DNA from: Escherichia coli
Lineage (GTDB): Bacteria > Pseudomonadota > Gammaproteobacteria > Enterobacterales > Enterobacteriaceae
Strand: one strand, 5' to 3'
Length of the DNA stretch: 64,000 bases
NCBI RefSeq assembly: GCF_024223415.1
Contig: NZ_CP100500.1
Positions within the stretch are counted from its first letter, which is position 1. Every line of letters starts with the position of its first letter. This document shows positions 3,282 through 58,650 of this stretch, piece by piece. A program made the position numbers and the translations under genes. Below the pieces are notes generated by a model that saw only the letters and a list, made by a program, of their open reading frames with translations, made no database searches and was not told the DNA's origin.

Positions 3282-3297
3282 CAGCAGGAGAGGCATA

Positions 3298-5144: not shown

Positions 5145-5172
5145 AAGGGCAGATTCTTTTCTGCCCTTTTTT
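5145..5172 (+). terminator. Intrinsic terminator downstream of fruA
   Basis: AAGGGCAGA-ttctttt-CTGCCCTT stem followed by a T-run; a second perfect 9-bp hairpin lies at ~5003-5027. Confidence 0.7.
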
Positions 5173-5412
5173 AGTGTTCATGTTCTGTGCATCCCGTCAC
5201 AAATTCCTCGCTTTTGTAATTCAGGCATTTAATCGCATTTTGTGAGCCTGCTCAAATCTGCCCGCTTTGCCTCTCTGGCGGCAATTTACTTTACGTAAAA
5301 CATGCATACTATGAGCACATGTTTAAATATGAACACATGTTTAAACCGTCTTTGCAGTATCTATATCCTTGTGGATTGACAGGGTTGGTAATTTTTTACC
5401 AGAGGACGTGCT

Positions 5413-7280: not shown

Positions 7281-7373
7281 TTTCTGACGGGCAGAAAGCC
7301 GTCGCCCGTACTGATCATACATACCGAAACCTGGCGCTGACGCCGGGTTTACTGGCATGAAGGGAAAATCATT

Positions 7374-8624: not shown

Positions 8625-8691
8625 GTTTCATTGCCGGATGTACTCGCTTATTAAGCGTTGCATCCGGCAATCGCGCTATTGCAAATAATTT

Positions 8692-9351: not shown

Positions 9352-9519
9352 CAATTGCTGCTTAAGATCATTATTGTGGATTTCTTTCACGATGTTTATC
9401 CGCTATGAGATTTCTCATATTTAGCATACGTACGCTGTTGTTAAGATTCAATCATCGGCCCGGTCGAATTTTCTTTGCTGTAGAAAAAATAACGCAACTG
9501 GAAACAGAGGAAATAAACA

Positions 9520-10461
9520 ATGGAAAAGAGAAAAATTATTCTGGATTGTGATCCGGGTCATGATGATGCTATTGCAATGATGATGGCAGCGAAACATCCG
9601 GCAATAGATTTATTAGGCATCACTATTGTAGCGGGTAATCAGACGCTTGATAAAACATTAATTAATGGCCTGAATGTTTGCCAGAAACTGGAGATTAATG
9701 TTCCGGTTTATGCGGGGATGCCGCAACCCATTATGCGTCAACAAATCGTTGCCGATAATATTCACGGTGAAACCGGACTGGATGGCCCGGTATTCGAGCC
9801 GCTGACCCGCCAGGCAGAAAGTACCCACGCGGTGAAATACATCATTGATACCCTGATGGCAAGCGATGGCGATATCACTCTGGTGCCGGTTGGTCCGTTG
9901 TCAAATATCGCGGTGGCAATGCGTATGCAACCCGCAATCCTGCCCAAAATCCGTGAAATTGTGCTAATGGGCGGCGCTTACGGTACAGGCAACTTCACGC
10001 CATCTGCCGAGTTCAACATCTTTGCTGACCCGGAAGCCGCACGCGTGGTGTTCACCTCCGGCGTTCCATTAGTGATGATGGGCCTCGATCTTACCAACCA
10101 GACCGTTTGCACCCCGGACGTAATTGCTCGGATGGAAAGGGCAGGCGGCCCTGCCGGAGAGCTATTCAGCGACATCATGAACTTCACTCTCAAAACGCAG
10201 TTCGAAAACTACGGCCTGGCTGGCGGCCCGGTGCACGACGCCACCTGCATCGGTTATCTGATTAACCCTGATGGCATTAAAACCCAGGAGATGTACGTCG
10301 AAGTGGACGTCAACAGTGGCCCTTGTTATGGGCGTACCGTCTGCGACGAGCTGGGCGTTCTTGGCAAGCCCGCTAATACCAAAGTCGGCATCACTATTGA
10401 TACCGACTGGTTCTGGGGCTTAGTCGAAGAGTGCGTGCGCGGCTACATCAAAACCCATTAA
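9520..10461 (+). CDS. rihB: Pyrimidine-specific ribonucleoside hydrolase
   Basis: 313-aa ORF with the N-terminal DCDPGHDD nucleoside-hydrolase motif. Confidence 0.92.
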
Positions 10462-10560
10462 GTGTTGATAACAAGCCGGGCCGGTATCGCAAGATGCAGG
10501 CCTGGCTATTTCTGAGGGGCAGAAAGCCGTCGCCCAATATGACATGAAGAGATAATAACT

Positions 10561-11808
10561 ATGGATGTCATGAGAAGTGTTCTGGGAATGGTGGTATTGC
10601 TGACGATTGCGTTTTTACTGTCAGTAAACAAGAAGAAGATCAGCCTGCGTACCGTTGGCGCGGCGTTAGTGTTACAGGTCGTGATCGGCGGGATTATGCT
10701 TTGGTTACCGCCAGGGCGTTGGGTCGCTGAAAAAGTCGCTTTTGGCGTGCATAAAGTGATGGCGTACAGCGATGCAGGTAGCGCATTTATCTTCGGTTCG
10801 CTGGTCGGGCCGAAAATGGACACGCTGTTTGATGGCGCAGGATTTATCTTTGGTTTCAGGGTGTTACCGGCAATTATCTTCGTCACCGCGCTGGTGAGTA
10901 TTCTCTACTACATCGGTGTGATGGGGATCTTAATTCGCATTCTCGGCGGTATCTTCCAGAAAGCGTTAAATATCAGCAAGATCGAGTCATTCGTCGCGGT
11001 CACTACCATTTTCCTCGGGCAAAACGAAATTCCGGCAATCGTCAAACCCTTTATCGATCGGCTGAATCGCAATGAGTTATTTACAGCGATTTGTAGTGGC
11101 ATGGCCTCAATTGCCGGTTCGACAATGATTGGTTACGCCGCGCTGGGCGTGCCTGTGGAATATCTGCTGGCGGCATCATTAATGGCGATCCCCGGCGGGA
11201 TCTTGTTTGCCCGCCTGTTAAGCCCGGCTACGGAATCTTCGCAGGTTTCCTTTAATAACCTCTCTTTCACCGAAACACCGCCAAAAAGCATTATTGAAGC
11301 GGCAGCGACAGGGGCGATGACCGGGCTGAAAATCGCTGCGGGTGTGGCAACAGTGGTGATGGCATTTGTTGCCATCATTGCGTTAATTAACGGTATTATC
11401 GGCGGCGTTGGCGGCTGGTTTGGTTTTGAACATGCCTCGCTGGAGTCCATTTTAGGTTATCTGCTGGCCCCACTGGCGTGGGTAATGGGTGTTGACTGGA
11501 CTGATGCGAATCTTGCCGGGAGTTTGATTGGACAGAAACTGGCAATAAATGAATTTGTCGCTTATCTCAATTTCTCACCCTATCTGCAAACGGCTGGCAC
11601 TCTGGATGCTAAAACCGTGGCGATTATTTCCTTCGCGTTGTGCGGTTTCGCTAACTTTGGTTCTATCGGGGTGGTGGGGGCGTTTTCTGCGGTTGCGCCA
11701 CACCGTGCGCCGGAAATCGCCCAACTTGGTTTACGCGCGCTGGCGGCGGCGACACTTTCTAATCTGATGAGTGCCACCATTGCCGGGTTCTTTATTGGTT
11801 TAGCGTAG
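10561..11808 (+). CDS. nupX: NupC-family nucleoside permease
   Basis: 415-aa ORF, MDVMRSVLGMVVLLTIAFLLSVNKKK...; close paralogue of psuT. Confidence 0.9.
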   Translation: MDVMRSVLGMVVLLTIAFLLSVNKKKISLRTVGAALVLQVVIGGIMLWLPPGRWVAEKVAFGVHKVMAYSDAGSAFIFGSLVGPKMDTLFDGAGFIFGFRVLPAIIFVTALVSILYYIGVMGILIRILGGIFQKALNISKIESFVAVTTIFLGQNEIPAIVKPFIDRLNRNELFTAICSGMASIAGSTMIGYAALGVPVEYLLAASLMAIPGGILFARLLSPATESSQVSFNNLSFTETPPKSIIEAAATGAMTGLKIAAGVATVVMAFVAIIALINGIIGGVGGWFGFEHASLESILGYLLAPLAWVMGVDWTDANLAGSLIGQKLAINEFVAYLNFSPYLQTAGTLDAKTVAIISFALCGFANFGSIGVVGAFSAVAPHRAPEIAQLGLRALAAATLSNLMSATIAGFFIGLA

Positions 11809-11863
11809 TGTGCGATTTATGAGCCGGATTAGATGCGGTCAAGCGTCGAATCCGGCAACATTG

Positions 11864-34252: not shown

Positions 34253-35200
34253 ATGCGTGTGTTACTGGCACCGATGGAGGGAGTGCTTGACTCTCTGGTG
34301 CGTGAATTGCTGACCGAAGTTAACGACTACGATCTGTGCATCACCGAGTTTGTCCGCGTGGTGGATCAACTGCTGCCGGTAAAAGTCTTTCATCGCATTT
34401 GCCCTGAGCTACAAAACGCCAGCCGGACACCATCTGGTACGCTGGTGCGCGTGCAGTTGTTAGGTCAGTTCCCACAATGGCTGGCAGAGAACGCCGCCCG
34501 TGCGGTGGAGTTAGGTTCCTGGGGCGTGGATCTCAATTGCGGCTGCCCGTCGAAAACGGTTAACGGTAGCGGCGGCGGGGCGACGTTACTCAAAGATCCT
34601 GAACTCATCTACCAGGGTGCAAAAGCGATGCGTGAAGCTGTACCGGCGCATTTGCCCGTCAGCGTGAAAGTGCGTCTGGGCTGGGACAGCGGTGAGAAGA
34701 AATTTGAAATCGCCGATGCGGTTCAACAGGCTGGCGCTACGGAGCTGGTGGTGCATGGGCGGACGAAAGAGCAGGGTTACCGCGCGGAGCATATTGACTG
34801 GCAGGCGATTGGCGATATTCGCCAGCGGCTGAATATTCCGGTGATTGCCAACGGTGAAATCTGGGACTGGCAGAGCGCGCAACAATGCATGGCGATCAGC
34901 GGCTGCGACGCAGTGATGATTGGTCGCGGGGCGCTCAATATTCCCAACCTGAGCCGGGTGGTAAAATATAACGAACCGCGAATGCCGTGGCCGGAGGTGG
35001 TTGCTTTGCTGCAAAAATATACCCGTCTGGAAAAGCAGGGCGATACCGGGTTATATCACGTTGCGCGGATTAAACAGTGGTTGAGTTATTTGCGTAAAGA
35101 ATACGATGAAGCAACGGAATTATTTCAGCATGTTCGGGTGTTGAATAATTCCCCTGATATTGCAAGGGCTATTCAGGCAATTGATATCGAGAAACTCTAA
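34253..35200 (+). CDS. dusC: tRNA-dihydrouridine(16) synthase
   Basis: Track ORF is 337 aa; start placed at [14 protein letters not shown] (315 aa); Dus catalytic Cys context (NCGCP). Confidence 0.9.
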
Positions 35201-35572
35201 AAAACCATAGTGATGTTTTTTGACAATGTGTTAGCTCTTTATCAATAGGCCGCACGGTTGTTTGGTGGCGTCAAAATTGCCGAGGCGTTCCCTGAAGGCC
35301 GGGGCAGCCCACATGGATGTGGGCTGAGGGCGCGTTTTACAGGGATGTTACCTCGCGCCCGACCCGGTAGCCGTAAGGGATAAGCCGAGGGCACCGCGCA
35401 GCGGCGATTTTGTTCGCCAGAGCCCGGGGGTGCAGGGGGCGGCGGCGATTGGCCGCCCCCTGCGCGCTCCTTGCGCCAGTGATTATATGAAGCAATGCAC
35501 ATGACAGGAGCGCAACAGGATGAGAGACTGAAATATTCTCGTTATTTTCGGACCTGATGACATTAATTAATT

Positions 35573-35656
35573 TTAAAATATCATCTTAAATACGCCAGTC
35601 ACCACCAGTAGCCCAATCAGGAAAATAATCAATACAGCCCAGAGTATAATTTTCAT
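35573..35656 (-). CDS. yohP: Small membrane protein YohP (27 aa)
   Basis: Minus-strand ORF MKIILWAVLIIFLIGLLVVTGVFKMIF, below the ORF-track size cutoff; matches recalled YohP. Confidence 0.7.
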   Translation of the reverse strand: MKIILWAVLIIFLIGLLVVTGVFKMIF

Positions 35657-35879
35657 TGGCGTTCCTTTATTTGTGAGTGCTGAATAAGTATAGGAAAAAA
35701 CGAAGCCCTTTGCCGTTATCCATAAACGATTAAGATAAATCGGAAGATATCATTCACTTAGTGTATATTTTTCTGGATATGTCGTTTTATTGCCACTGAT
35801 GTATTGCCACGCGAAACTAAAAAATATATCGCAACACACGGTAATCTCCGCGCACCTTTTCTTACCTGATTATTCCCCC

Positions 35880-37316
35880 ATGAATCGTGATTCCTTTTAT
35901 CCAGCCATCGCCTGTTTTCCGCTGTTACTGATGCTGGCCGGGTGTGCGCCTATGCATGAAACCCGCCAGGCGTTAAGCCAGCAAACGCCCGCTGCACAAG
36001 TTGACACCGCATTACCCACGGCGCTGAAAAATGGTTGGCCAGACAGCCAATGGTGGCTGGAGTATCACGATAATCAACTCACTTCCTTAATTAACAATGC
36101 ACTACAGAACGCACCGGATATGCAGGTGGCTGAACAGCGCATTCAGCTAGCTGAAGCCCAAGCGAAGGCAGTTGCCACTCAGGATGGTCCGCAGATCGAC
36201 TTTTCGGCGGATATGGAGCGGCAAAAAATGTCGGCAGAAGGCTTAATGGGGCCGTTTGCTCTGAACGATCCGGCCGCAGGTACGACCGGCCCGTGGTACA
36301 CCAACGGTACTTTTGGCTTAACGGCGGGCTGGCATCTCGATATCTGGGGAAAGAATCGGGCGGAGGTTACTGCCCGCCTGGGTACGGTTAAAGCACGGGC
36401 GGCGGAACGCGAGCAAACCCGCCAATTGCTGGCTGGCAGCGTAGCCCGCCTGTACTGGGAGTGGCAAACCCAGGCGGCGTTAAACACGGTCTTGCAGCAA
36501 ATAGAAAAAGAGCAGAACACCATTATCGCGACCGATCGCCAGCTATATCAGAACGGGATTACTTCTTCAGTTGAAGGTGTGGAAACCGATATTAATGCCA
36601 GCAAAACCCGGCAGCAGCTCAACGATGTCGCGGGGAAAATGAAAATTATTGAGGCACGGTTAAGCGCACTTACAAATAACCAGACAAAGTCATTGAAGCT
36701 TAAACCGGTCGCGTTGCCGAAAGTGGCAAGCCAGCTTCCTGATGAACTGGGGTACTCCTTACTGGCCCGGCGGGCAGATTTGCAGGCGGCGCACTGGTAC
36801 GTTGAGTCATCGCTAAGCACCATTGATGCGGCAAAAGCGGCATTTTATCCTGACATCAACCTGATGGCCTTCCTGCAACAGGATGCGTTGCACTTAAGCG
36901 ATCTGTTCCGTCATTCCGCGCAGCAAATGGGCGTTACGGCAGGCCTGACGCTACCCATTTTCGATAGTGGTCGTCTTAACGCCAATCTCGATATCGCAAA
37001 AGCCGAAAGCAACTTGTCTATCGCCAGCTACAACAAAGCGGTGGTTGAAGCGGTGAATGACGTGGCGCGGGCAGCCAGTCAGGTTCAGACACTGGCGGAG
37101 AAAAACCAGCATCAGGCGCAAATTGAGCGCGATGCCTTGCGTGTGGTAGGTCTTGCGCAGGCGCGCTTTAACGCGGGCATCATTGCTGGTTCCCGCGTCA
37201 GCGAAGCCAGAATCCCCGCGCTGCGTGAGCGGGCCAATGGCCTGTTATTGCAAGGGCAGTGGCTGGATGCCTCCATTCAACTCACTGGTGCGTTGGGCGG
37301 GGGTTACAAACGCTGA
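35880..37316 (+). CDS. mdtQ: Outer-membrane efflux lipoprotein (OMF / NodT family), intact
   Basis: Start placed at MNRDSFYPAIACFPLLLMLAGC (lipobox LAGC), giving a continuous 478-aa ORF. Confidence 0.85.
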   Translation: MNRDSFYPAIACFPLLLMLAGCAPMHETRQALSQQTPAAQVDTALPTALKNGWPDSQWWLEYHDNQLTSLINNALQNAPDMQVAEQRIQLAEAQAKAVATQDGPQIDFSADMERQKMSAEGLMGPFALNDPAAGTTGPWYTNGTFGLTAGWHLDIWGKNRAEVTARLGTVKARAAEREQTRQLLAGSVARLYWEWQTQAALNTVLQQIEKEQNTIIATDRQLYQNGITSSVEGVETDINASKTRQQLNDVAGKMKIIEARLSALTNNQTKSLKLKPVALPKVASQLPDELGYSLLARRADLQAAHWYVESSLSTIDAAKAAFYPDINLMAFLQQDALHLSDLFRHSAQQMGVTAGLTLPIFDSGRLNANLDIAKAESNLSIASYNKAVVEAVNDVARAASQVQTLAEKNQHQAQIERDALRVVGLAQARFNAGIIAGSRVSEARIPALRERANGLLLQGQWLDASIQLTGALGGGYKR

Positions 37317-37368
37317 TGATATGCGCCTTCTATACTTAACGTTTATTCAGCGTTAAGTGGAGAACTCG

Positions 37369-38130
37369 ATGGCACAGGTTGCGATTATTACCGCCTCCGA
37401 TTCGGGGATCGGCAAAGAGTGCGCGTTATTACTGGCGCAGCAGGGGTTTGATATTGGTATTACCTGGAACTCAGATGAAGAAGGGGCAAAAGATACCGCG
37501 CGTGAGGTAGTTAGCCACGGCGTACGTGCGGAGATCGTGCAGCTGGATCTCGGTAAACTGCCAGAAGGTGCGCAGGCGCTGGAGAAACTCATTCAACGGC
37601 TGGGGCGTATTGATGTGCTGGTGAATAATGCGGGCGCAATGACCAAAGCGCCGTTTCTTGATATGGCTTTCGATGAGTGGCGCAAGATTTTTACCGTTGA
37701 TGTCGATGGTGCATTTTTATGCTCACAAATTGCGGCCCGCCAGATGGTGAAACAAGGGCAGGGCGGTCGCATCATCAACATTACGTCGGTACATGAACAT
37801 ACGCCGCTGCCGGATGCCAGCGCCTACACAGCCGCTAAACATGCGCTCGGTGGGTTAACCAAAGCGATGGCGCTGGAGCTGGTCAGGCATAAGATTTTGG
37901 TGAACGCAGTCGCGCCTGGGGCGATCGCCACGCCAATGAATGGCATGGATGACAGCGACGTGAAGCCCGACGCGGAGCCTTCGATTCCTCTGCGGCGTTT
38001 TGGCGCAACGCATGAGATTGCCAGCCTGGTAGCGTGGCTGTGCTCAGAGGGCGCAAATTACACCACCGGGCAGTCGTTGATAGTGGATGGCGGCTTTATG
38101 TTGGCGAATCCGCAGTTCAACCCAGAATAG
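37369..38130 (+). CDS. yohF: Short-chain dehydrogenase/reductase (acetoin-reductase-like)
   Basis: 253-aa ORF from MAQVAIITASDSGIGKE (SDR TGxxxGxG-like motif). Confidence 0.9.
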   Translation: MAQVAIITASDSGIGKECALLLAQQGFDIGITWNSDEEGAKDTAREVVSHGVRAEIVQLDLGKLPEGAQALEKLIQRLGRIDVLVNNAGAMTKAPFLDMAFDEWRKIFTVDVDGAFLCSQIAARQMVKQGQGGRIINITSVHEHTPLPDASAYTAAKHALGGLTKAMALELVRHKILVNAVAPGAIATPMNGMDDSDVKPDAEPSIPLRRFGATHEIASLVAWLCSEGANYTTGQSLIVDGGFMLANPQFNPE

Positions 38131-38170
38131 CGCAGTGAGGTGCGTGGTTATTTCAATGGGTAAAATTTTG

Positions 38171-38250
38171 GTAGGCATGATAAGACGCACAAGCGTCGCA
38201 TCAGGCATGGTGCACCGGATGTCGGATGCGGCGCGAACGCCTTACCCAGG
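38171..38250. repeat. REP-like palindromic element
   Basis: GCATCAGGC... / ...CCGGATGTCGGATGCGGCGCGAACGCCTTACC REP-type sequences between yohF and yohD. Confidence 0.6.
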
Positions 38251-38259
38251 GCAATGGTT

Positions 38260-38838
38260 TTACGCCTGATGATCCGGCTTTTTCTTCCCGCGCCGTTTCA
38301 GCCACCAGCGCACGCCTACCACCAGAACCACGACCAGAATCAACCAGACCCAGTGCTTCAAATGCTGGTCGAGAGTGTGCAACCACGGCGCAATCACCTG
38401 ACCACCAGCGTAACCGATAGTGGTAAAAATCAACGCCCAGGCAAATGCGCCGAGAATATTAAGCGGCAGAAAGATTTTCGGCGGCAGCTGGCTGGCACCA
38501 ATCAGCGTCGGGCCAATCACCCGAAAGCCATACATAAAGCGCGTACCAATGACAAACAGATACGGATGGCGTTGGATAAGTTTCTGCGCCCGCTCAATTT
38601 TATCCTGATGTTTCGAGAAACGGCGTAACAGCTTGCCGCCAAACCGCCGCCCGCACAGATAAAGCACCTGGTCGCCAATCATGCCGCCAAGCGCCACAGA
38701 AAGTACCACCAGCGGGAACTTTAATAGCCCCTGATGTGCCGCAACGCCTCCCAGCAAAGTCACGGTTTCACCTTCCGCCAGGCTACCGATCACCAGCGCG
38801 GCATAACCATATTGTGAGATGAGTGTATTGAGATCCAT
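38260..38838 (-). CDS. yohD: DedA-family inner membrane protein
   Basis: Start placed at MDLNTLISQYGYAAL (192 aa). Confidence 0.88.
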   Translation of the reverse strand: MDLNTLISQYGYAALVIGSLAEGETVTLLGGVAAHQGLLKFPLVVLSVALGGMIGDQVLYLCGRRFGGKLLRRFSKHQDKIERAQKLIQRHPYLFVIGTRFMYGFRVIGPTLIGASQLPPKIFLPLNILGAFAWALIFTTIGYAGGQVIAPWLHTLDQHLKHWVWLILVVVLVVGVRWWLKRRGKKKPDHQA

Positions 38839-48935: not shown

Positions 48936-49023
48936 AGGTATAACCTGCGAGCATGACGCCACCAATTCCGCCTAACGCCATAAACAGGAACAGGGCGATG
49001 ACCCCAATTTTAGCTATGCGCAT
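48916..49023 (-). CDS. yohO: Small membrane protein YohO (35 aa)
   Basis: Minus-strand [38 protein letters not shown] overlapping the yehW 3' end; matches recalled YohO. Confidence 0.75.
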
Positions 49024-49082
49024 AATGCACTCCTTATGTTAACGAAAGGATTGTACAGTAAAGCGCATTTGTTAACGAATCA

Positions 49083-49767
49083 TTAAATGCCGAGTGGGAA
49101 AATATCATGGCCTTGTTCTTGCCAACTGGTGAGTTGCTGCTGTTGGGCGGAGGTTCGATTTTCACCGCACCACACCAGCAATGTACGGCCTTCGAATAGT
49201 TCAGGGCGTAGTTGATTGAGCGAGTGGGCGAGGACATCAATGCGCCATCCTTGTTGACTGGCAATCCAGCCCTCCAGCCACAGACGGGTGGTATCCTGAA
49301 TATTCCAGCCAACCACCAGCGCATCTTTACCCTGTTTTTTACGTGCCGAAGCCAGACAAATGGCGATGTAGTTGATCAGTACGCCGTCGAGGATCGCCAG
49401 CAGCGCCTGGAGAGTCGGTTGTTGGCACTGAAGCCGTCGGCGCAGAGGAATAAACAGATGTGTGGTGAGTGTCTGGGCGGGGTAATCCTGACCGCGCTCT
49501 TTGATCCACGTTCGCAGGCTATGTAGATTGCCGCTTTGCAGGTAAGTCAGTAATGTTTCTTGCTGATCGCGCCAGCCGTTCTGCACATCAACATTTTCAT
49601 TACTGAGCAGCATTTTAACTTTGCTGACCTGCACGCCGTTGTCGATCCAGCGTTTGATCTCGCGGATCCGGTCAATATCGGCATCGTTGAACAGCCGATG
49701 ACCGCCGTCTGTCCGTTGCGGTTTCAGCAATCCGTAACGCCTCTGCCACGCGCGTAACGTGACAGGG
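49083..49767 (-). pseudogene. mlrA: MerR-family curli regulator MlrA (YehV), 5'-truncated by prophage insertion
   Basis: Minus-strand translation matches MlrA from ...PVTLRAWQRRYGLLKPQRTDGGHRLFNDADIDRIREIKRW... to the native C-terminus; the first ~16 codons (MALYTIGEVALLCDIN, part of the HTH) are replaced by phage DNA. Confidence 0.85.
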
Positions 49768-49804
49768 ATTAAGGGTAAACTAACTGATTTTACAAGTTTT
49801 TATT

Positions 49805-51091
49805 TTACCCCACTTTCTTATGGGGCATACATGGGACACTTTCAGATAGTCTTTTGTTAAGGAGTTCTATCTGTTCGTGATTGTTGTCTTTCATCCATGC
49901 TCCGTAAACATTGAATACCATTTGTGCGTTTGTGTGGCCCATCTGGCTTGCGATAAAACTAGGATTAGCTCCAGCGGCAAGTGACCAGCATGCATAAGTA
50001 TGCCTGGATTGGTACGATTTTCTGTGTCTCAGACCTGCGCGTTTTAAGATACTTGTCCATGACTCCCTGATGGAGTCAACCTTATAGTGCGGTCCGGAAA
50101 ACTGCCGCTGTTTTATTACCTGAGGACTAAAAACAAAAGTGCATTTATGCACAGTACTTCTCCCATATTCCCTCTGCTTTACCTCTACAGAATGTTGCTT
50201 TCCAAGCATGGTCATTTCCGCCTGACTTTTAAGAGCATCAATAGCTGGTTGAACCAGATGAATTGTCCTTCCGGTGCCAGCATCGGTTTTTGGTGGAGTG
50301 AATTCGCCAAGTTTTGTATAATTCCTACGGATGGTTATAGTCCTTGCTTTAAGGTCTATATCTTCCCATGCCAGCGATACCAACTCCCCGTGACGAATAC
50401 CCGTGTATACAGCGAGAATCCACAGGTTTTTTGTTTGTTGATGACGGCAAGCCTCAATAAAACGAATAAATTCGTCACGGGTGAGAGGATCTGGTTTTAC
50501 CTTGGACTTTTTTAAGGGAGCCAGACCGTTAAATGGGTTTCCTGAGGTATAACCATTATCTGTTGCAAATTGAAACATTCCAGCTATGGTTGTCATATAG
50601 TAGTTTACCGTGACCACTGAGCGCCCTTTTATGGAAGAAGTCTTTCCATTAGAAAGCTTTTGGTAACCGGTCAACAAATCTCTCCTTACGAAAAGTAAAT
50701 CCTCTTTTGTTATGGATGAAACCAGTTTTTTTTCACCTAACATTGGTAACATGTTTTTAATTACTGACTGGTAACGGTTAAGTGCATTCGCACAAATCTC
50801 AATTTTCTTAAGGTCCAACCATTTTTCCGAAAGTGCCTTAACGGTTATCTCTCTTTTTCCCAGACCAAAGTGTTTCAGGTTAGGGGAATTAGGGAACTGC
50901 GCGGCGTAGTCGAAACTCCCCATTCTGATTGCAAAACAAACGGAAGTGCGAAGTTCACCTGCGATCTTCCGGTTTTTGGCGGTGTCAGGAACACCGAGGT
51001 TTTCTCTGACACGTTTGCCATTATAGTGAAACCATATACGGAGTGATCCTCCATGGTTTTCAACGCCTGTCGGGTATGATACGTTACTCAT
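49805..51091 (-). CDS. int: Phage tyrosine integrase
   Basis: 428-aa ORF; C-terminal catalytic-domain residues (RHTYACW, GHTNAQMVFNVY); transcribed toward the att junction. Confidence 0.9.
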   Translation of the reverse strand: MSNVSYPTGVENHGGSLRIWFHYNGKRVRENLGVPDTAKNRKIAGELRTSVCFAIRMGSFDYAAQFPNSPNLKHFGLGKREITVKALSEKWLDLKKIEICANALNRYQSVIKNMLPMLGEKKLVSSITKEDLLFVRRDLLTGYQKLSNGKTSSIKGRSVVTVNYYMTTIAGMFQFATDNGYTSGNPFNGLAPLKKSKVKPDPLTRDEFIRFIEACRHQQTKNLWILAVYTGIRHGELVSLAWEDIDLKARTITIRRNYTKLGEFTPPKTDAGTGRTIHLVQPAIDALKSQAEMTMLGKQHSVEVKQREYGRSTVHKCTFVFSPQVIKQRQFSGPHYKVDSIRESWTSILKRAGLRHRKSYQSRHTYACWSLAAGANPSFIASQMGHTNAQMVFNVYGAWMKDNNHEQIELLNKRLSESVPCMPHKKVG

Positions 51092-51124
51092 TAAACCTCC
51101 CAGACGTCCAGGAGCATTAACAGG

Positions 51125-51379
51125 TTAACCGGAACTTGCATTTTTGGCACCTGGTTGTTTCTGGTTTTCGATCCATCGCATAATTTCTTCGATGTTGTAC
51201 AGGCATTCACTGTAGTGCCCCGGATCACCTTCTACAGCGTAATGGCGGTATTCTTTTCCCTGCATCCATGACTTTCTTCTTGCCCGCTCAATGGTGCCAG
51301 GCTTTAGCCCTGTTGATGCAATGAGGACTCTCTCCGTACACCATTTGCTGGGGGTTATCTGATAGATGATTGTTTGCAT
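51125..51379 (-). CDS. Putative excisionase / small DNA-binding protein
   Basis: 84-aa ORF immediately upstream of int in the same orientation; assigned by position and size only. Confidence 0.5.
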   Translation of the reverse strand: MQTIIYQITPSKWCTERVLIASTGLKPGTIERARRKSWMQGKEYRHYAVEGDPGHYSECLYNIEEIMRWIENQKQPGAKNASSG

Positions 51380-51535
51380 GCCAACCTCATAAAATTTTCA
51401 TCCACGGCAGTGGCACCACACATCAAACATTCGCTTCACAACTTCACGACAGTAGAAGCCGTCAACATCTCGCGTCAGGTCATAGCGATTGCCATAACGC
51501 TGGCGCACCCATAGTTCAAATGCTTTATTCATTCT

Positions 51536-51778
51536 TTACTTCCTTTTCATGGCCCGTAATTTTTTCAGATGAGCTTCCTGCTCTGTTTCTGCCAGAATTT
51601 GTCGGTATTCCTGGTGATCGAGCCGTTCAAACAGTTCATTAAAATCGTTTATTTTTACCGACTGTGTTCTCCCATCCATTCTTCTGTACAACACAGTGTT
51701 GTTTATGCAGCGAATAATTTTTACCGGGTAGCCAGCACTATCGGTGTATATCTGACCACGTTGAATCAGAGCGAACAT
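51536..51778 (-). CDS. Hypothetical phage protein
   Basis: 80-aa ORF in the leftward early operon. Confidence 0.45.
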   Translation of the reverse strand: MFALIQRGQIYTDSAGYPVKIIRCINNTVLYRRMDGRTQSVKINDFNELFERLDHQEYRQILAETEQEAHLKKLRAMKRK

Positions 51779-51865
51779 TCCTTTATCCCCAGCGGAAAAG
51801 CGAATACAGAATAAATGCCACCGCTATTGCAACTCCTACTGCGGTGAATGCTTCAGGCCAATTCA

Positions 51866-52495
51866 TCATTTCACCTCCACGCCGATCCCGGCAATAACAC
51901 AATCCCGTTTGATAGCTTCTTTCACCCAGCGTTTATAGGTTTCCGGATGGAATTTTGCGTTTTTTCCGGTACCGCTCCAGAATGCCTTTGATGTGATATC
52001 GGGCAGGGTGATGGTCAGGCCTTTCTTCTTGCTGCCTTCAGAACTTTTGCAAAAAGTTAATGCGTCGCGTAGTTCTTTAACACACGCATAGTTTTCTGCT
52101 TTCTCTGGGTCGCCGGTACGGTGTTCAGCTTCTTGTCTGCACCATTTGATGACTTTCTCTGCGGCTGCGTGGAGACGCTGACGTTGCCAGTCGTATGTGT
52201 CGACCAGCCCATATGCGTGATTCTTTGCTTTGCTTAATTCAGCGACGAGGCATTCGGAATCAATCAAATTATTTTCCGCAGCGGACAGCGCTTGTTTAAG
52301 TCGCTCGATTTCTTGAGCCATGTAGTAGCCGGTTTTACTCCAGGTATCGACATCATCGTCACTCATATCCAGTTCCATCGACGCCATCAGAACGGCGTCG
52401 TGATAGTTCTGGCTACCGCAGGTGATTGCAACGACGTAGGAGTCACTATTTTCTCGTTTATGGATAAGTACAACTGGGTTTTTGATCTTGCTCAT
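51866..52495 (-). CDS. Hypothetical phage protein
   Basis: 209-aa ORF; no motif I can recognise. Confidence 0.55.
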   Translation of the reverse strand: MSKIKNPVVLIHKRENSDSYVVAITCGSQNYHDAVLMASMELDMSDDDVDTWSKTGYYMAQEIERLKQALSAAENNLIDSECLVAELSKAKNHAYGLVDTYDWQRQRLHAAAEKVIKWCRQEAEHRTGDPEKAENYACVKELRDALTFCKSSEGSKKKGLTITLPDITSKAFWSGTGKNAKFHPETYKRWVKEAIKRDCVIAGIGVEVK

Positions 52496-52595
52496 TCCGC
52501 ACCTCAGTAATTCATTAAAAATTTATATTCAATCAGCGCACCGAAAACGACGGACGCCAGCAGCAGACCAAACAGCATGGACAGGAGGAATGACT

Positions 52596-52820
52596 TCATC
52601 GCTTTGCCTCCCGCTGTACGATTTTGTAGGCGCGCAGGATGTCGCGTGTTTTTCCTGACAACGATGACTTAACCCAGAAAAAGCCGCTGCGGTTTTCATA
52701 GATCCCCTGTACATTAAACAGCACCGCATCAACAACGCGGTTATGCTTTTGCAATGTCAGGCAGGAACTGGTGATCACGATGTTCGCTACGGCGCCATAG
52801 TCCTGGTATTGGATTTTCAT
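52596..52820 (-). CDS. Hypothetical phage protein
   Basis: 74-aa ORF abutting the next ORF; a 31-aa hydrophobic peptide ORF (MKSFLLSMLFGLLLASVVFGALIEYKFLMNY, ~52504-52599) overlaps its stop by ATGA. Confidence 0.45.
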   Translation of the reverse strand: MKIQYQDYGAVANIVITSSCLTLQKHNRVVDAVLFNVQGIYENRSGFFWVKSSLSGKTRDILRAYKIVQREAKR

Positions 52821-53159
52821 TTACATGTTCCCCATAACGGTATCGCTCATGTCGTTAACCATGCTCTGCCAGATTTCTTTGCCGCTTTGCGTCAGCTCGT
52901 TTCCACGAACGCATTTGCTTAACAGCTGAATACCAACGGCTTCCCATTGGGGGTAATTTTCTTTGATAGCCTTCAGAGCATAACCATCGATTAAATCCCT
53001 GATACCTTTAACCCCACCGATGATGTTTACTCGTATGGATTGCCCATTGACATTAATCATGAAATGATCTCCGTTGGTGGCGGATATGTGGTTGTGCAGT
53101 GCAGCCGCATACTGATTTGCCAGCGCATTGAGGCGGAAATTTTGTGTAATGAGTGGCAT
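52821..53159 (-). CDS. Hypothetical phage protein
   Basis: 112-aa ORF, stop/start abutting neighbours. Confidence 0.5.
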   Translation of the reverse strand: MPLITQNFRLNALANQYAAALHNHISATNGDHFMINVNGQSIRVNIIGGVKGIRDLIDGYALKAIKENYPQWEAVGIQLLSKCVRGNELTQSGKEIWQSMVNDMSDTVMGNM

Positions 53160-53905
53160 TATTTACCCTCCCAACCAATCACCTGAAACAGCCCCATTTT
53201 CGGGTGATACCAGCGGGTACCGCGTGGCTCTGCCTCTGACATCATCTGATGAAATGCTTTCATGAACGGCTCAAGCTCCACGATAGCCCGGCGAGAAAGA
53301 AGACCATCTGGCGTCATAAATTCGTGCGTATCGGTTGGGATGCTGTAGGCATTGACCAGATTGCGGCACTTGGCATCAGTCATTCCGCTTTTGGCGACCA
53401 CCTGGCGATAACCGACATATCCGGCGCGCATATTTCCGCGTTTGATGTTCTCCACAGCTTTGGTGACCGTTTCGATCTTCTCTTCAACATGACTCAGGCG
53501 CTTCTGCTGGCGAACGGCATCGGCGGCCATTGCAGCGATCATCTCCATTTCCGTCAGCGGCGCGTGAGTTCGGAAATAGCTGTTAACCAGTTCGCGCTGA
53601 ACCTGCCATGCAAGAGTATCGTTAAAAGGCTTCGTCAACATCAGGTAACCAGACTCGAAAAGAATGATCCCTTTGGCAGTTCGCGCGGCAAAGGCATCAG
53701 AAAGTGACTCCGTACGTATTACGTCCGCAGTCATTTCAAGAAAATCCACCCCTTCGATAAAGTGAGAACGGTTGCGGTTAAACGCAGCACGGGCGGTACC
53801 TTCCGGGCGCTGGTGGACGTCATCAATCATTGCAAATGTCACAACACGCTGACCGCGATATTCGATTACCGGAAACTGTTTGTTGTTGATGGTTACAGTA
53901 TTCAT
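53159..53905 (-). CDS. Hypothetical phage protein, possibly antirepressor/regulatory-like
   Basis: Start placed at MNTVTINNKQFPVIEYRGQRVVTF (RBS GGAGAT upstream); domain assignment is from memory and uncertain. Confidence 0.5.
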   Translation of the reverse strand: MNTVTINNKQFPVIEYRGQRVVTFAMIDDVHQRPEGTARAAFNRNRSHFIEGVDFLEMTADVIRTESLSDAFAARTAKGIILFESGYLMLTKPFNDTLAWQVQRELVNSYFRTHAPLTEMEMIAAMAADAVRQQKRLSHVEEKIETVTKAVENIKRGNMRAGYVGYRQVVAKSGMTDAKCRNLVNAYSIPTDTHEFMTPDGLLSRRAIVELEPFMKAFHQMMSEAEPRGTRWYHPKMGLFQVIGWEGK

Positions 53906-53948
53906 TTTTATCTCCAGACAGCCCGGCGTGTAATACCGGGCATATGTA

Positions 53949-54776
53949 TTACTTAACCTGAATAAATGGTGTGTTGGCACCGCTGGTCATGTATTGCGGC
54001 AGTGTACCGTTCCACTTGTTGATGGCTTCCAGCTCCATAACGTTTGGGTTCTGGCGCAGAGCTTCACCGCGTAAACGAATAGCATCGGCTTCGGCCTGGG
54101 CTTTTGTGCGAATCGCATCTGCCTGTCCGGCAGCTTCCGCGCGCAACATGTTGGCTTCCGCTTCGCGCTGTTTTACTTCCTGCTCGCGTTGCAGGGTTTT
54201 CTGGTTGGCCGTGACTTTGGCATTAATGCTGTCGATAACGGTTGGCGGGTACTCCGGCTTACCCACATATGAGAGGCTCATTACCTGAATACCGATAGGT
54301 GTCATCTCTGCCTGAATGTCTTTAAGAGCTTCATCCAGCAGCTCAGACTTGCCGCCGTCGATAAATTTGTCAGTGGTCATTTTGCTGGCCAGTCGGTTGA
54401 GTGCGTCGGCGATCTTCTGGCGCAGGTCAGTGTCGGTAATGTCATCCACGCCTTTGCGGTAGGTCTGAAACACCGTGGTAACTTTGGATGGATCAACTTT
54501 GTAGGCCACGCCAATGTGATAGCCGATGGTTGTACCGTCACTCATCTGGAAACTGAACGGTTCATCGTAGGTCTTCATTTGTTTGAAGGTGGGGAAGATA
54601 TAAACTTCAGTATTCCAGCCAGTCCAGTAGCGACCAACACCGACCACCTCACCGACGCCTTTGTCGTCGCCCAGTTTATTTACCTTGATGCCAACATTAC
54701 CTGGTTCAACGCGATCGCAACCGACAAGGCCAATAGTCGGCAGAACAATGGCTAAAGCAAAAATAATTTTTTTCAT
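53949..54776 (-). CDS. SPFH/band-7 (prohibitin/flotillin-like) domain lipoprotein
   Basis: 275-aa ORF; lipoprotein signal MKKIIFALAIVLPTIGLVGC; SPFH-like core followed by an Ala/Glu/Arg/Gln-rich coiled-coil tail (EQEVKQREAEANMLRAEAAGQADAIRTKAQAEADAIRLRGEALRQ). Confidence 0.7.
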   Translation of the reverse strand: MKKIIFALAIVLPTIGLVGCDRVEPGNVGIKVNKLGDDKGVGEVVGVGRYWTGWNTEVYIFPTFKQMKTYDEPFSFQMSDGTTIGYHIGVAYKVDPSKVTTVFQTYRKGVDDITDTDLRQKIADALNRLASKMTTDKFIDGGKSELLDEALKDIQAEMTPIGIQVMSLSYVGKPEYPPTVIDSINAKVTANQKTLQREQEVKQREAEANMLRAEAAGQADAIRTKAQAEADAIRLRGEALRQNPNVMELEAINKWNGTLPQYMTSGANTPFIQVK

Positions 54777-54961
54777 CTTTTATCCTTAGTGAAAGAAAGA
54801 CCCTTGTAAATGGCATAAATGCAGGGCGGGGTCAGAAACGCCAGTGCAAAGCCAGAAATAACTGCTATCGTATCCTTCATGGATATAAGGAACGGAACGA
54901 TTAATCCGTAAATACATGTGATAATTGCCAGTGATATAACTATTCTGAAATAAATGTTCAT
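54773..54961 (-). CDS. Small membrane protein, translationally coupled to the SPFH lipoprotein
   Basis: 62-aa ORF with two hydrophobic helices; stop overlaps the SPFH start by 4 nt. Confidence 0.55.
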   Translation of the reverse strand: MNIYFRIVISLAIITCIYGLIVPFLISMKDTIAVISGFALAFLTPPCIYAIYKGLSFTKDKR

Positions 54962-55021
54962 GGTCCTCCTGATGTATTCGGCTTGCCTTATTTAATTGCG
55001 TCATAGTTAATTTCGTTTACG

Positions 55022-55412
55022 TCAGAATGGTTTTGTTGCCATCAGTTCGTAATATCCGGCGCTCCATGTGTCATATTTTCTGAACCATTTTTCTGTATAC
55101 TGTTTCCTGGCGATGAGTCTGCGCAGTCGTCTGATTGTTCGCTGGTGTGCGCGGGTATACTCTGTGGTTGATTCTCCACGTTTCCATATCTCATTCCTGT
55201 TGAAGATAAAACGCTTGTCAGGATAGCGTTGTCGGAATCCTGAACGTTCAAAAGCGCGGGTGGTCATAAAGAATGCCAGGTAACGAATTGCCGTTTTTCG
55301 AGTGAGGCATTTTTTTTGTTCTTCCGTGGCGTGTTACAAAAAATAACGGGCCGACGGGTGTATCATGTTTCTGTAATGCCTGGTCAATGGCGCTGGCGGT
55401 GCGGTTGTCGAT
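55022..55412 (-). pseudogene. Hypothetical phage gene split by a frameshift at a T8/A8 homopolymer
   Basis: A 57-aa ORF (MIDNRTASAIDQALQKHDTPVGPLFFVTRHGRTKK...) and the 81-aa track ORF 55022..55267 become one ~130-aa ORF if the A8 run (plus-strand T8 at ~55309-55316) is shortened by 1 nt. Confidence 0.4.
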
Positions 55413-55601
55413 CATTTCTTTATTTCTCCCGAATAACGTTCATGACTCATTACTTCCCAGTTCCGGCCGTCGTCTTTCGATAACAGCCGCCAGCGACGGT
55501 TAACCTTCAGACTGAGATATCCGGTGCGCTGTATCCGATGCGGAAATATCCGTCGGCATCGGTACAACAACAGGACCTGCAATGCCTGCCGGTGGATCCG
55601 C

Positions 55602-55817
55602 TCAGGAATGCGTGTTGCTGTTAATGCCACCGGTTTCCTCCTGAGCAGGTGCTGTTATCTGATACCCCGCTCTTTCTGCCAGCCGTATGAATGTATCCAT
55701 GCTGGCAATCAGCTCGCCATCGCGGACTTTGCAGACACCTGTGACTTGGCCATTTTCAATTGTCATAACGATCTGCACTTTTTCGCGCACAACAGATACA
55801 GGGGATAAATTAGCCAT
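55602..55817 (-). CDS. Hypothetical phage protein
   Basis: 71-aa ORF, 1-nt overlap with the upstream ORF. Confidence 0.45.
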   Translation of the reverse strand: MANLSPVSVVREKVQIVMTIENGQVTGVCKVRDGELIASMDTFIRLAERAGYQITAPAQEETGGINSNTHS

Positions 55818-56176
55818 CAGTTAATTCCTCCACTGGTATATTTTTCTTTTTCGTAATCAACAACCTCTTTTAAAAGGTTGTCTACAATTAACTTCCCCGA
55901 TTCAGTTAGATACTCAGTGTGTTGATTAATATTGATGGCATTGCGGTATGCGGCAAGTATTGCGGTCTCGCCATCCGTCCGTCCAAATTCAACACGGGTA
56001 AGACCTTCAAATCGTAATAACAGTTGTGTCATGAAGTGTTCCGTAATTTCGATGGTAGTTAACCCTCCGTCAGGAAGATTTACGATGAGAAGATTTCCTC
56101 CTGTTTTACGTTGCATCCGCTGTAATGCTGTTGTGACTATGCGGTGACGATATTTACCAATGATTTCATATGCCAT
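55817..56176 (-). CDS. Hypothetical phage protein
   Basis: 119-aa ORF. Confidence 0.5.
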   Translation of the reverse strand: MAYEIIGKYRHRIVTTALQRMQRKTGGNLLIVNLPDGGLTTIEITEHFMTQLLLRFEGLTRVEFGRTDGETAILAAYRNAININQHTEYLTESGKLIVDNLLKEVVDYEKEKYTSGGIN

Positions 56177-56360
56177 TTGTTATTTCCCGTATGCTTTCCT
56201 AAGAAACAGTATTGCAACTGACCAGTATCCTGCATTAGCCATTAATAAGGCGGTTTTATAAGCGCTTCTATTTTTCATGTATCACCATTATTTTCTGGTT
56301 GTGAAAACTCCCGACCAGAGGCCGTCATGTTTTTATGTGTGATTTTTTATTGAGTATTCT

Positions 56361-56552
56361 TTATTCGTTACGTAGTGTTTCTATATACTCGTAAGCCATT
56401 TCACAGGTCTTATTCATGGACCTGATGAGACAACATAAATAATCGTCTAACTCTCCTGAGTCGGGCGAATTCTTAAATATAAATTCAAGCATTGATGTAT
56501 TCTCTTTTATTTGTGCCGCCACTTCCTCAAGAATATTTAATGGAGTTTTCAT
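56361..56552 (-). CDS. Hypothetical phage protein
   Basis: 63-aa ORF overlapping the upstream ORF by 4 nt. Confidence 0.4.
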   Translation of the reverse strand: MKTPLNILEEVAAQIKENTSMLEFIFKNSPDSGELDDYLCCLIRSMNKTCEMAYEYIETLRNE

Positions 56553-56773
56553 GTTCTTTGCTCCTTTAATGTGTCTCTGGCGCTTCTGGCGTATTGTTGT
56601 GCAAGTAAAAAGATGTCATCCGAAAGTTCATCACATTCTTCATCACCTGAAGCCGAAATGATTAACCCCGCTTCAAGCAGTACGGCAATGTGATGAAAAG
56701 CTGTTTCCGGTTCGTTGGTGAGGCCTTTGAACATTTTCATTTTATGCTTCCTCCTGATTTTGTTTATAAGCAC
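56549..56773 (-). CDS. Hypothetical phage protein with basic N-terminus
   Basis: 74-aa ORF, N-terminus KIRRKHKMKMFK. Confidence 0.4.
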   Translation of the reverse strand: MLINKIRRKHKMKMFKGLTNEPETAFHHIAVLLEAGLIISASGDEECDELSDDIFLLAQQYARSARDTLKEQRT

Positions 56774-57161
56774 CAGTCAGTAACCACATCGGATCACAGC
56801 CAAGAACATTAGCCAGAGGAATAATCTGGCTTGCCAGAGGCTCCCTCTTGCCACTTTCCCACTGGATGATAATTTCTTCATCGAGATTGAGCAGCCTGGC
56901 GAGTTCGGCGGTTGTTAAGCCGCAGTCTTCGCGTTGGGTGCGAATCCGATTCTGGGAATTAATAGCTAAATTTTGTTTGCATAAACGTGACGCGGTGAGG
57001 CTATATTTTTGAGTTACAGCCAGGATGGAGCTGGCAAGTTCAATTAACTCAGGGTTATTGCTGCTATACAGTAGTGCACCAGCCCCTACTAAGAGCTGAA
57101 TATTCTCAAGAGCATCGTGCTGATTTGTTGGTAACCCCATATACGATGACATTTTTCTCAT
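56742..57161 (-). CDS. HTH (XRE-like) domain protein, first gene of the leftward early operon
   Basis: 139-aa ORF with a C-terminal helix-turn-helix (GLTTAELARLLNLDEEIIIQWESGKREP). Confidence 0.55.
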   Translation of the reverse strand: MRKMSSYMGLPTNQHDALENIQLLVGAGALLYSSNNPELIELASSILAVTQKYSLTASRLCKQNLAINSQNRIRTQREDCGLTTAELARLLNLDEEIIIQWESGKREPLASQIIPLANVLGCDPMWLLTGAYKQNQEEA

Positions 57162-57212
57162 CCTCTATAATTGCTTTGGTGAGTTCGATACCTATGTCAA
57201 GATAATAGGTTT

Positions 57213-57244
57213 ACCGATTTCACCTGTCAATCGGTTTATCGATT
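57213..57244. promoter_or_regulatory. Putative OL operator palindromes
   Basis: ACCGATT-N9-AATCGGT and AATCG-N6-CGATT inverted repeats, sharing half-sites with the cI-cro palindrome. Confidence 0.5.
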
Positions 57245-57250
57245 TTTTCC

Positions 57251-57276
57251 AAAAAAAAGCCCACTTAAGAGTGGGC
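57251..57276 (-). terminator. Intrinsic terminator downstream of cI
   Basis: On the minus strand, GCCCACT-cttaa-GTGGGC followed by T8. Confidence 0.75.
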
Positions 57277-57294
57277 GGGTTAAATGATTTTTGC

Positions 57295-57987
57295 TTATGC
57301 AAAACGGTGTAGTGTCATAGGCCAACTGACAATTACTTTTCCGTCAATGTGAAGTTGTTCGAAGTCTTCCGGTTCGATAGCCCAATCCTTGTAAGCTGGG
57401 TTGTCAGATATCACCGTTAGAGTATCTTTGATTTTTTGAAGTCTTTTGATGTGCGATGTTCCAGAGTATGTAAAGGCGTATATACCATCACCATTAAATG
57501 TGCGAACTGATACATCTACAAATACCAAGTCTTCAGGGTCTATTGTGCCTTTCATACTGTCGCCGTGGGCGTTTATTGCTTTGATTGCTGATGCTGGTCT
57601 GCCGCCAAAAACTCTTGATGCGTATCCTGGCTCTATCGCTATAGATCTGACAATGTCAGGAAAATCAGAGTTATAACTACCAGGTCCGCAACTATATCTG
57701 ATGTCTAAAACATCCACGACATACGAATCAGTAACCCAATCTTCAGAAATGTTACGTATTTGGTGTGAGTCTGCAGAGGTCACGATTTCCATTGGGCCAA
57801 CACCCGATGCGAGCCATTCCGGGTTAACGCCCAAAACTTTTGCTATTTCGACTGTTTTTCTGGAACCGTTGGCTTTGTTAAGTAGTTGGTTAACACTGGA
57901 CTGAGCCATACCCACTTCTTTGGCCAGCCTACCTTGCGTAAATTTTGCGTTGCGCATAGCTAAATCAAGTCGTTCTGAAAATGTCAT
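57295..57987 (-). CDS. cI: Phage CI-type repressor (N-terminal HTH, C-terminal S24 LexA-like peptidase)
   Basis: 230-aa ORF; HTH (FTQGRLAKEVGMAQSSVNQL) and C-terminal autocleavage-domain motifs (GDSM...K); divergent from cro. Confidence 0.85.
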   Translation of the reverse strand: MTFSERLDLAMRNAKFTQGRLAKEVGMAQSSVNQLLNKANGSRKTVEIAKVLGVNPEWLASGVGPMEIVTSADSHQIRNISEDWVTDSYVVDVLDIRYSCGPGSYNSDFPDIVRSIAIEPGYASRVFGGRPASAIKAINAHGDSMKGTIDPEDLVFVDVSVRTFNGDGIYAFTYSGTSHIKRLQKIKDTLTVISDNPAYKDWAIEPEDFEQLHIDGKVIVSWPMTLHRFA

Positions 57988-58020
57988 TGCGATTTTCCTC
58001 CCCTCTCTATCTTGGCTAGT

Positions 58021-58038
58021 TTATCGGCTTTCCGATAA
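58021..58038. promoter_or_regulatory. Putative OR operator
   Basis: TTATCGG-cttt-CCGATAA perfect palindrome between cI and cro. Confidence 0.6.
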
Positions 58039-58106
58039 ATATTCTAGGTTTAACGTTGAATATCGCTTTTCCTGTTGTTATTATGCGTTCAATAGGAGAT
58101 GCGATT

Positions 58107-58394
58107 ATGAAACATAAAGCCATAGAGAAAGCTATTGAGATTCTTGGAAGTCAGCAAGCCTTAGCCAAGCGATGCGGAAAGGCCCAGTCAACAGTCTGCG
58201 ATTGGTTGAACTGCAAGAACAAGATTTCACCAGAATTTGTGCCGTTATTGGTTGCAGCTGTCGACGGAAAGATCCAAGCGTATGAATTTCGTCCAGACCT
58301 ACCAGAGCTTTTTCCACATCCAAGCTTAGCGCGCACGGGGGAGGTGAAGGGCTTGTATGTCCCAGAATTACGTTCAGACAGAGATGCCATCTAG
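58107..58394 (+). CDS. cro: Cro-like HTH regulator
   Basis: ATG at 58107 with RBS AGGAGA; MKHKAIEKAIEILGSQQALAKRCGKAQSTVCDWLN (HTH); track ORF begins at an upstream TTG. Confidence 0.7.
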   Translation: MKHKAIEKAIEILGSQQALAKRCGKAQSTVCDWLNCKNKISPEFVPLLVAAVDGKIQAYEFRPDLPELFPHPSLARTGEVKGLYVPELRSDRDAI

Positions 58395-58650
58395 GTACTG
58401 CCAGGCAGACGAAGAGTGGATTCAGCAGCAGTTACAGAGGCTGCCTCCGTCACTGAGACGGAAGGTCGCCCTGAAATATGCGGAGGTATACGAAATCACT
58501 TTTGACGCTGAGCCTGTTTCATTCCGCAAGGAGAACAGAGCAAGGCACGAAGCAAACACAAGGCTCCGCCTGTTCGTGAGAAATCAGGGCAGAGCTTTAC
58601 AGGGGTATACAACTCAGCCGCCCCTGGCAGGAACGCAATCGCGCTCCTGA
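58357..58650 (+). CDS. Hypothetical phage early protein (cII position)
   Basis: 97-aa ORF with RBS GGAGGTGAAGG; overlaps the cro 3' end. Confidence 0.5.
   Translation: MSQNYVQTEMPSRYCQADEEWIQQQLQRLPPSLRRKVALKYAEVYEITFDAEPVSFRKENRARHEANTRLRLFVRNQGRALQGYTTQPPLAGTQSRS

Follow-up and report, generated by a model that had tools for sequence, protein, structure and literature searches.

mdtQ, a gene for an orphan OMF lipoprotein of Escherichia coli: the intact allele, the K-12 lesion and candidate partner pumps

The systems closest to the gene considered here are other copies of mdtQ (formerly yohG) in Escherichia coli. MdtQ (YohG) of this species, including UniProt Q8X659 from O157:H7, belongs to the same equivalog as the present protein and differs from it in nothing of substance, while the protein of strain ATCC 8739 (WP_001078139.1) is 100% identical, with the gene encoding it differing by one synonymous base. 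In K-12, the same locus, once split as yohG/yohH, is a pseudogene (b2139) containing one A fewer. The closest paralogous model is MdtP (YjcP), the OMF of E. coli ytcA-mdtNOP, which shows the same NodT lipoprotein architecture; unlike MdtP, however, MdtQ is encoded alone, with neither adaptor nor pump. Among relatives of solved structure, VceC of Vibrio cholerae (1yc9) is the best match, yet the sequence similarity is only distant. Moreover, VceC is presumably the lipoprotein OMF of VceAB, which we take to be an EmrAB-like MFS pump encoded together with its OMF, whereas MdtQ is an orphan. In contrast to TolC, which lacks lipid modification as a lipoprotein, MdtQ carries a lipobox, and the score of MdtQ against the corresponding model, TIGR01844, falls far below the cut-off of 225. 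The sequences of TolC of E. coli and MdtQ are about 12% identical (PMC11762307).

In a 2025 review, mdtQ was described as conserved in the core genome despite its pseudogene label and as 'encoded independently', with mdtQ null mutants being more susceptible to puromycin, acriflavine and tetraphenylarsonium (PMC11762307). The stretch of E. coli DNA analyzed here, 64,000 nucleotides in length and referred to in the following as the window, includes a copy of mdtQ that was considered in terms of its reading frame, distribution, surroundings and likely partners. The features discussed are collected in Table 1.

Table 1. Positions in the window of mdtQ, its neighbours and ORFs of the adjoining prophage
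Feature	Position	Strand	Basis
yohP, small membrane protein gene, divergent upstream neighbour of mdtQ	35573..35656	-	K-12 coordinate transfer, sequence
yohP-mdtQ divergent intergenic region, 223 bp, presumed mdtQ promoter and leader	35657..35879		sequence
mdtQ (formerly yohG) CDS, intact, 478 aa	35880..37316	+	ORF list, sequence, Pfam, NCBIfam
Lipoprotein signal peptide MNRDSFYPAIACFPLLLMLAG, followed by C	35880..35945	+	translation, ending LLMLAG/C
A5 homopolymer, codons K50-N51, site of the K-12 lesion	36027..36031	+	alignment with b2139 and K-12-like ATCC BAA-196
yohF, SDR-family oxidoreductase	37369..38130	+	ORF list, K-12 and ATCC 8739 annotation
Integrase ORF (prophage)	49805-51091	-	analogy with annotated match in strain Ch1
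LexA-family repressor-like ORF (prophage)	57295-57987	-	analogy with strain Ch1
DEAD/DEAH helicase (prophage)	59500-61155	+	analogy with strain Ch1
Toprim protein (prophage)	61157-62125	+	analogy with strain Ch1
Q-antiterminator-like ORF (prophage)	63457-63891	+	analogy with strain Ch1

Reading frame, family and the K-12 lesion

The mdtQ gene runs from an ATG codon to a TGA stop codon and spans 1437 nt, corresponding to 478 codons and the stop. When the ORF list, the sequence itself and alignments were examined, neither an internal stop nor a frameshift was found within the gene. The claim of the initial annotation that mdtQ is read as a single 478-residue ORF with a proper lipobox was accordingly borne out, as the alignments in which an overlooked frameshift or stop was sought contained none. 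In the mechanically generated ORF list, the same frame opens at a TTG codon at position 35790, giving 508 residues; this start was rejected, as the signal peptide would then be buried. Instead, the genuine start codon is the ATG at 35880, because the NCBIfam model and the orthologues all begin with MNR, an N-terminus retained in alignments with the proteins of E. albertii, Salmonella and Citrobacter.

The lipobox, comprising L19-A20-G21-C22, is encoded at positions 35934-35945 of the window, with the codon of Cys22 at 35943-35945. In the aligned orthologues from E. albertii, Salmonella and Citrobacter, position 19 is occupied by either L or M, whereas A20-G21-C22 is invariant. Cys22 is thus predicted to be the lipidated first residue of mature MdtQ, with an Ala at position +2. 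Because this residue is Ala and not Asp, the Lol sorting rule would predict that MdtQ is directed to the outer membrane.

Assignment to a family was unambiguous in terms of model scores. The NCBIfam equivalog model for MdtQ (NF008524) was matched with 1024.4 bits, relative to a cut-off of 650, with residues 1-478 of the protein corresponding to positions 1-478 of the 478 in the model; an ORF of this length with some 1024 bits against an equivalog model would be far beyond what is expected by chance. In addition, the two tandem repeats expected of an OMF were found as two stretches of the Pfam OEP domain (PF02321; E=1.7e-30), residues 16-475 scored 274 bits against the NodT model TIGR01845 (cut-off 210.05), rendering MdtQ a member of that family, and the lipobox expected of OMF/NodT lipoproteins is present in the sequence, with lipidation being predicted. 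As such, the description of MdtQ as an OMF/NodT-family lipoprotein in the initial annotation holds. By contrast, the score of MdtQ against the MdtP equivalog model (NF007390), namely 356 bits, remained below the cut-off of 597, such that MdtQ appears to be a paralogue of the MdtP family and not one of its members. A search of solved structures with residues 51-477 returned VceC first (1yc9; E=1e-39), followed by OprM, CmeC, SilC and CusC, with the match to OprM reaching an E-value of about 1e-23.

To place the K-12 lesion, the gene in the window was globally aligned with that of MG1655 (b2139; NC_000913.3 2227323..2228758; 1436 bp), which is annotated as a pseudogene. Exactly three differences were seen, with 1434 of 1437 positions being identical. 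One is a 1-bp deletion that leaves MG1655 with A4 where the window presents the A5 run listed in Table 1. As a result of the deletion, the K-12 frame shifts after K50 and continues for 19 aberrant residues to a stop, yielding a 69-residue product; the rest of the K-12 gene remains open in another frame, lacking a signal peptide. The other two differences are SNPs at positions 36161 and 37304, both synonymous, since the +1-frame translation of the K-12 gene past the lesion is the protein encoded in the window. The alignment called for in the initial annotation thus located the lesion and confirmed that the K-12 copy is disrupted. The susceptibility phenotype of the null mutants reportedly originates from Sulavik et al. 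2001, with the strain background said to have been K-12. If this is so, the reported phenotype cannot come from loss of full-length MdtQ.

Distribution of the intact allele, selection and losses

When 5426 complete E. coli genomes were searched, a 1.8-kb region containing mdtQ was found in 5423, always on the chromosome and with a coverage of at least 80% in 5407. An 80-mer containing the K-12 A4 run was matched exactly in 355 of these 5426 genomes; all 60 of the 355 that were listed are laboratory derivatives of K-12, among them MG1655 with its sublines, C600, J53, DH5alpha, DH1, RR1, NCM3722 and AG100. The corresponding 81-mer from the window, containing A5, was matched exactly in 3054 complete E. 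coli genomes. The other genomes differ by SNPs, and in every row sampled the aligned stretch comprised 81 bases, as opposed to the 80 of the K-12 query, a one-base-longer stretch that is consistent with the presence of the extra A. Likewise, the seven non-K-12 alleles that were fetched (from ATCC 8739, O157:H7, Nissle 1917, MS15236, Ecol_732, SCU-116 and E2865) are all 1437 nt long and intact, with a run of A5 or longer. Given that A4 is common to K-12 derivatives and that A5 is found elsewhere, the K-12 frameshift is lineage-specific and the window presents the norm of the species.

As the intact reading and the K-12 state are separated by one base of a homopolymer, a classic site of sequencing error, the intact reading could be thought to reflect an error of run length in the window or, conversely, in the K-12 reference. 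Such an explanation is scarcely credible, with A5 appearing exactly in 3054 complete genomes and in all seven non-K-12 alleles, and A4 being reproduced in 355 independently sequenced assemblies. Both states, each seen in many genomes, are therefore real and lineage-specific.

The most probable reading, to which we assign a probability of roughly 90%, is accordingly that mdtQ in the window is an ordinary wild-type allele of a core-genome E. coli gene encoding an orphan OMF lipoprotein of the NodT/TolC superfamily. This reverses the contrast implied in the initial annotation, where intactness was presented as the distinguishing property of this strain: intact mdtQ is the default in the species and K-12 is the outlier, rendering that framing misleading. 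Indeed, an intact mdtQ outside K-12 is ordinary and already published (PMC11762307).

Sequence divergence among alleles and orthologues was next compared. Pairing the window allele with six protein-divergent alleles gave dN/dS values of 0.035-0.099 (Nei-Gojobori), and the value over all pairs of eight alleles from diverse strains and phylogroups was about 0.08; in natural E. coli, purifying selection on mdtQ is thus strong. Orthologues in E. albertii (94% identity) and in Salmonella and Citrobacter (81-82%) retain the length, the start and the lipobox. The gene also retains its position. The window presents the order dusC-yohP-mdtQ-yohF-yohD and is colinear here with K-12 and ATCC 8739; in Salmonella, the order is dusC-yohP-mdtQ-yohF-yohD-yohC-pbpG-dld-bglX, and in Citrobacter, mdtQ is found at the equivalent site, with yohF being absent. 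A more divergent protein (P0121; 60% identity to MdtQ), whose gene is followed by an SDR gene, looks like an orthologous orphan as well. Considering the dN/dS values together with the conserved start, lipobox and synteny, it is plausible that MdtQ is a functional channel.

At the same time, mdtQ has been lost several times with no obvious penalty. In E. coli MRE162 (NZ_CP119400.1, 6048-6860), IS1B replaces both mdtQ and yohF, and of the region used as query no more than the initial 47 bases is left; this event is an independent loss of mdtQ, be it natural or from the laboratory. Two further E. coli variants carry in-frame deletions, namely, a 435-residue protein found in 43 contigs (P0014), which lacks residues 243-285, and a 420-residue protein (P0025), which lacks about 58 residues after position 277. 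Both represent further lineage-specific damage to mdtQ. In Salmonella, mdtQ of S. Typhi and that of Paratyphi A were truncated independently (PMC9241588).

Expression signals and surroundings

The region upstream of mdtQ offered few signals for expression. The ATG is not preceded by a canonical Shine-Dalgarno sequence (...ACCTGATTATTCCCCC-ATG), and a consensus scan revealed no sigma-70-like site between yohP and mdtQ, the nearest being at 35557-35584; in the region scanned, two promoter-like sites were found, as compared to 3.2 expected from shuffled sequences. Nor did an Rfam scan of positions 35000-38500 return any match at the gathering score, such that no RNA element was detected within or immediately upstream of mdtQ; a tRNA scan of the window was equally negative. 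The expression signals of mdtQ thus appear weak.

On the other side of the gene, yohF begins 52 bp 3' of mdtQ on the same strand, and a terminator scan detected no terminator-like site between the two, such that mdtQ and yohF may be co-transcribed. The pairing is not obligatory, given that yohF is missing in Citrobacter and, in Nissle 1917 (NZ_CM189243.1, 1770-2001), is labelled a pseudogene containing an internal stop, directly 3' of an intact mdtQ. The divergent neighbour yohP is found at the Salmonella locus too.

These observations bear on the possibility that mdtQ, while intact, is effectively cryptic, being barely expressed, redundant with TolC and contributing no measurable gain in efflux. 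The lack of both a Shine-Dalgarno sequence and an upstream promoter-like site would agree with such a gene, as would the tolerance of its repeated loss, seen in the K-12 frameshift, the IS1B replacement in MRE162 and the truncations in typhoidal Salmonella. In the literature, moreover, the promoter is without experimental confirmation and the function of mdtQ is 'not elucidated' (PMC11762307). A cryptic gene is, however, difficult to reconcile with a dN/dS of about 0.08, with retention in at least 5407 of 5426 genomes at a coverage of at least 80%, or with an ORF, lipobox and position kept across Escherichia, Salmonella and Citrobacter. We therefore regard this explanation as rather unlikely overall, while cryptic or redundant behaviour under laboratory conditions is plausible. 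Retention and dN/dS instead indicate that, on the evidence of these sequences, a working MdtQ would be selected for in natural populations under at least some conditions.

Beyond the immediate neighbours, positions 1-49772 of the window are colinear, in reverse orientation, with K-12 positions 2214909-2264707 at 97.4-99.7% identity, and positions 25000-49000 are about 100% identical to strain XYEH3934; the window does not belong to K-12. Identity to K-12 amounts to 97.4% over positions 1-11811 and to 99.1-99.7% over the remainder, which suggests that the first 11.8 kb or so may be a recombined segment; positions 7356-8640 also give a secondary match of 79.5% to an adjacent K-12 paralogue region (nupX/psuT-type transporters). 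The match to K-12 ends at mlrA (yehV), with positions 49772-64000 corresponding to a lambdoid prophage. Only one of the 5426 complete E. coli genomes covers at least 80% of positions 49000-64000. The mlrA ORF at 49083-49730 on the minus strand encodes 215 residues, relative to 243 in K-12, so that its 3' end appears to have been replaced at the attachment site, a change that could affect curli regulation.

Two repeat-like elements were also noted close to mdtQ. In the yohF-yohD intergenic region, positions 38174-38251 on the minus strand scored just short of the Rfam gathering score for naRNA4/CssrE, a nucleoid-associated RNA derived from REP sequences (56.5 bits, relative to 59.5; E=1.4e-8). 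Between the dusC stop codon (35200) and yohP, a G+C-rich repeat occupies approximately positions 35244-35516. A sub-threshold Rfam match to TwoAYGGAY at 35258-35409 (30.9 bits, relative to a gathering score of 43) probably reflects this repeat, which matches in position TRIP1c, a repeat that has been placed 43 bp beyond yohI (dusC) and 363 bp before yohG (mdtQ) (PMC10888264). TRIP1 copies have been reported to mediate chromosomal rearrangements (PMC10888264).

Candidate partner pumps

As an OMF, MdtQ would act together with a pump encoded elsewhere. Following Sec export, lipidation at Cys22 and sorting to the outer membrane, MdtQ would trimerise to form a TolC-like beta-barrel and a periplasmic alpha-helical tunnel, with the latter docking onto an adaptor in the periplasm and a pump in the inner membrane, such that MdtQ would form the exit duct of a tripartite exporter. 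The regions that flank mdtQ in E. coli, in Salmonella and in Citrobacter contain neither an adaptor gene nor a pump gene. Accordingly, the gene neighbourhoods of the closest full-length, non-orthologous relatives of MdtQ were read. Because the initial protein list was filled with orthologues of at least 80% identity, these relatives were retrieved from a library of 1.84 billion representatives.

Six of the nearest non-orthologous relatives (35-42% identity) presented a readable context. In three cases, P0127, P0128 and P0129 (42, 35 and 37% identity to MdtQ, respectively), the neighbourhood comprises genes encoding Ytca, an AaeA-like adaptor, FUSC and the OMF, a layout that we take to be that of E. 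coli ytcA-mdtNOP. In two others, P0125 and P0130 (42 and 36% identity, respectively), the gene lies immediately 3' of a FUSC gene, while that of P0131 (39% identity) is flanked by an MFS gene and one encoding an EmrA-like adaptor. The context of an additional relative, P0126, offered only a TetR-family neighbour. Five of the six contexts are thus of the FUSC/ArAE type and one is of the MFS type, in keeping with MdtP being the best paralogous model and VceC being the best solved relative. No RND gene was found beside any of the six relatives or in the flanks of mdtQ in E. coli, Salmonella or Citrobacter. The initial annotation had proposed that MdtQ may serve an RND or MFS efflux system; the MFS part of this proposal receives some support, with one context of six, whereas the RND part receives none.

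It could nonetheless be proposed that RND pumps use MdtQ as an alternative duct through the outer membrane, with MdtQ taking the place of TolC in AcrAB or systems of the MdtABC type. MdtQ is indeed homologous to the RND-associated proteins OprM, CmeC, CusC, OprN and MtrE, and the NCBIfam matches of the NodT family include the RND-associated AdeK, AdeC and CusC-type proteins. Still, an RND-associated OMF of the OprM/CusC type would be expected to be encoded, or to act, together with an RND transporter and its adaptor, and no RND gene flanks mdtQ in any of the three genera, nor does any of the six nearest relatives with a readable context adjoin one. Moreover, the best paralogous model is MdtP, and the best solved match is VceC (E=1e-39, as compared to about 1e-23 for OprM), the partner of which, VceAB, is presumably of the MFS type. 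Service as an RND duct therefore seems quite improbable. Rather, a partner of the FUSC/ArAE type or an EmrAB/VceAB-like MFS pump, in either case adaptor-dependent, would be more likely than one of the RND type, judging by the contexts of the relatives.

Among E. coli pumps of this FUSC/ArAE- or MFS-type, adaptor-dependent class, those with no OMF of their own presumably include AaeAB and YdhJK. AaeAB is an aromatic-acid efflux system (PMC6561319) and YdhJ is an EmrA/HlyD homologue in the ydhIJK pump operon (bioRxiv 10.1101/369546). One could therefore speculate, as a conjecture of low probability, that MdtQ is the missing outer-membrane duct for OMF-less FUSC/ArAE exporters, such as AaeAB and YdhJK, and was overlooked in K-12 genetics. 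The contexts of the relatives, with five FUSC, one MFS and no RND neighbours, would mildly favour this idea, while a literature search found no proposal linking mdtQ to aaeB, ydhK, ydhJ or mdtO. Were it correct, such a role would have escaped notice, given that efflux in E. coli has been studied genetically almost exclusively in K-12, the one lineage with a frameshifted mdtQ.

Since K-12 is not representative of the species in terms of mdtQ, phenotypes of knock-outs or annotations derived from K-12 can mislead. That mdtQ is intact in the window is, as stated above, the ordinary situation; the one mildly new element of the present analysis is the argument, drawn from gene context, that a FUSC/ArAE or MFS partner is to be preferred over one of the RND class. 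Taken together, this survey of contexts and the K-12 frameshift raise the possibility that genetics centred on K-12 may have masked the role of MdtQ.
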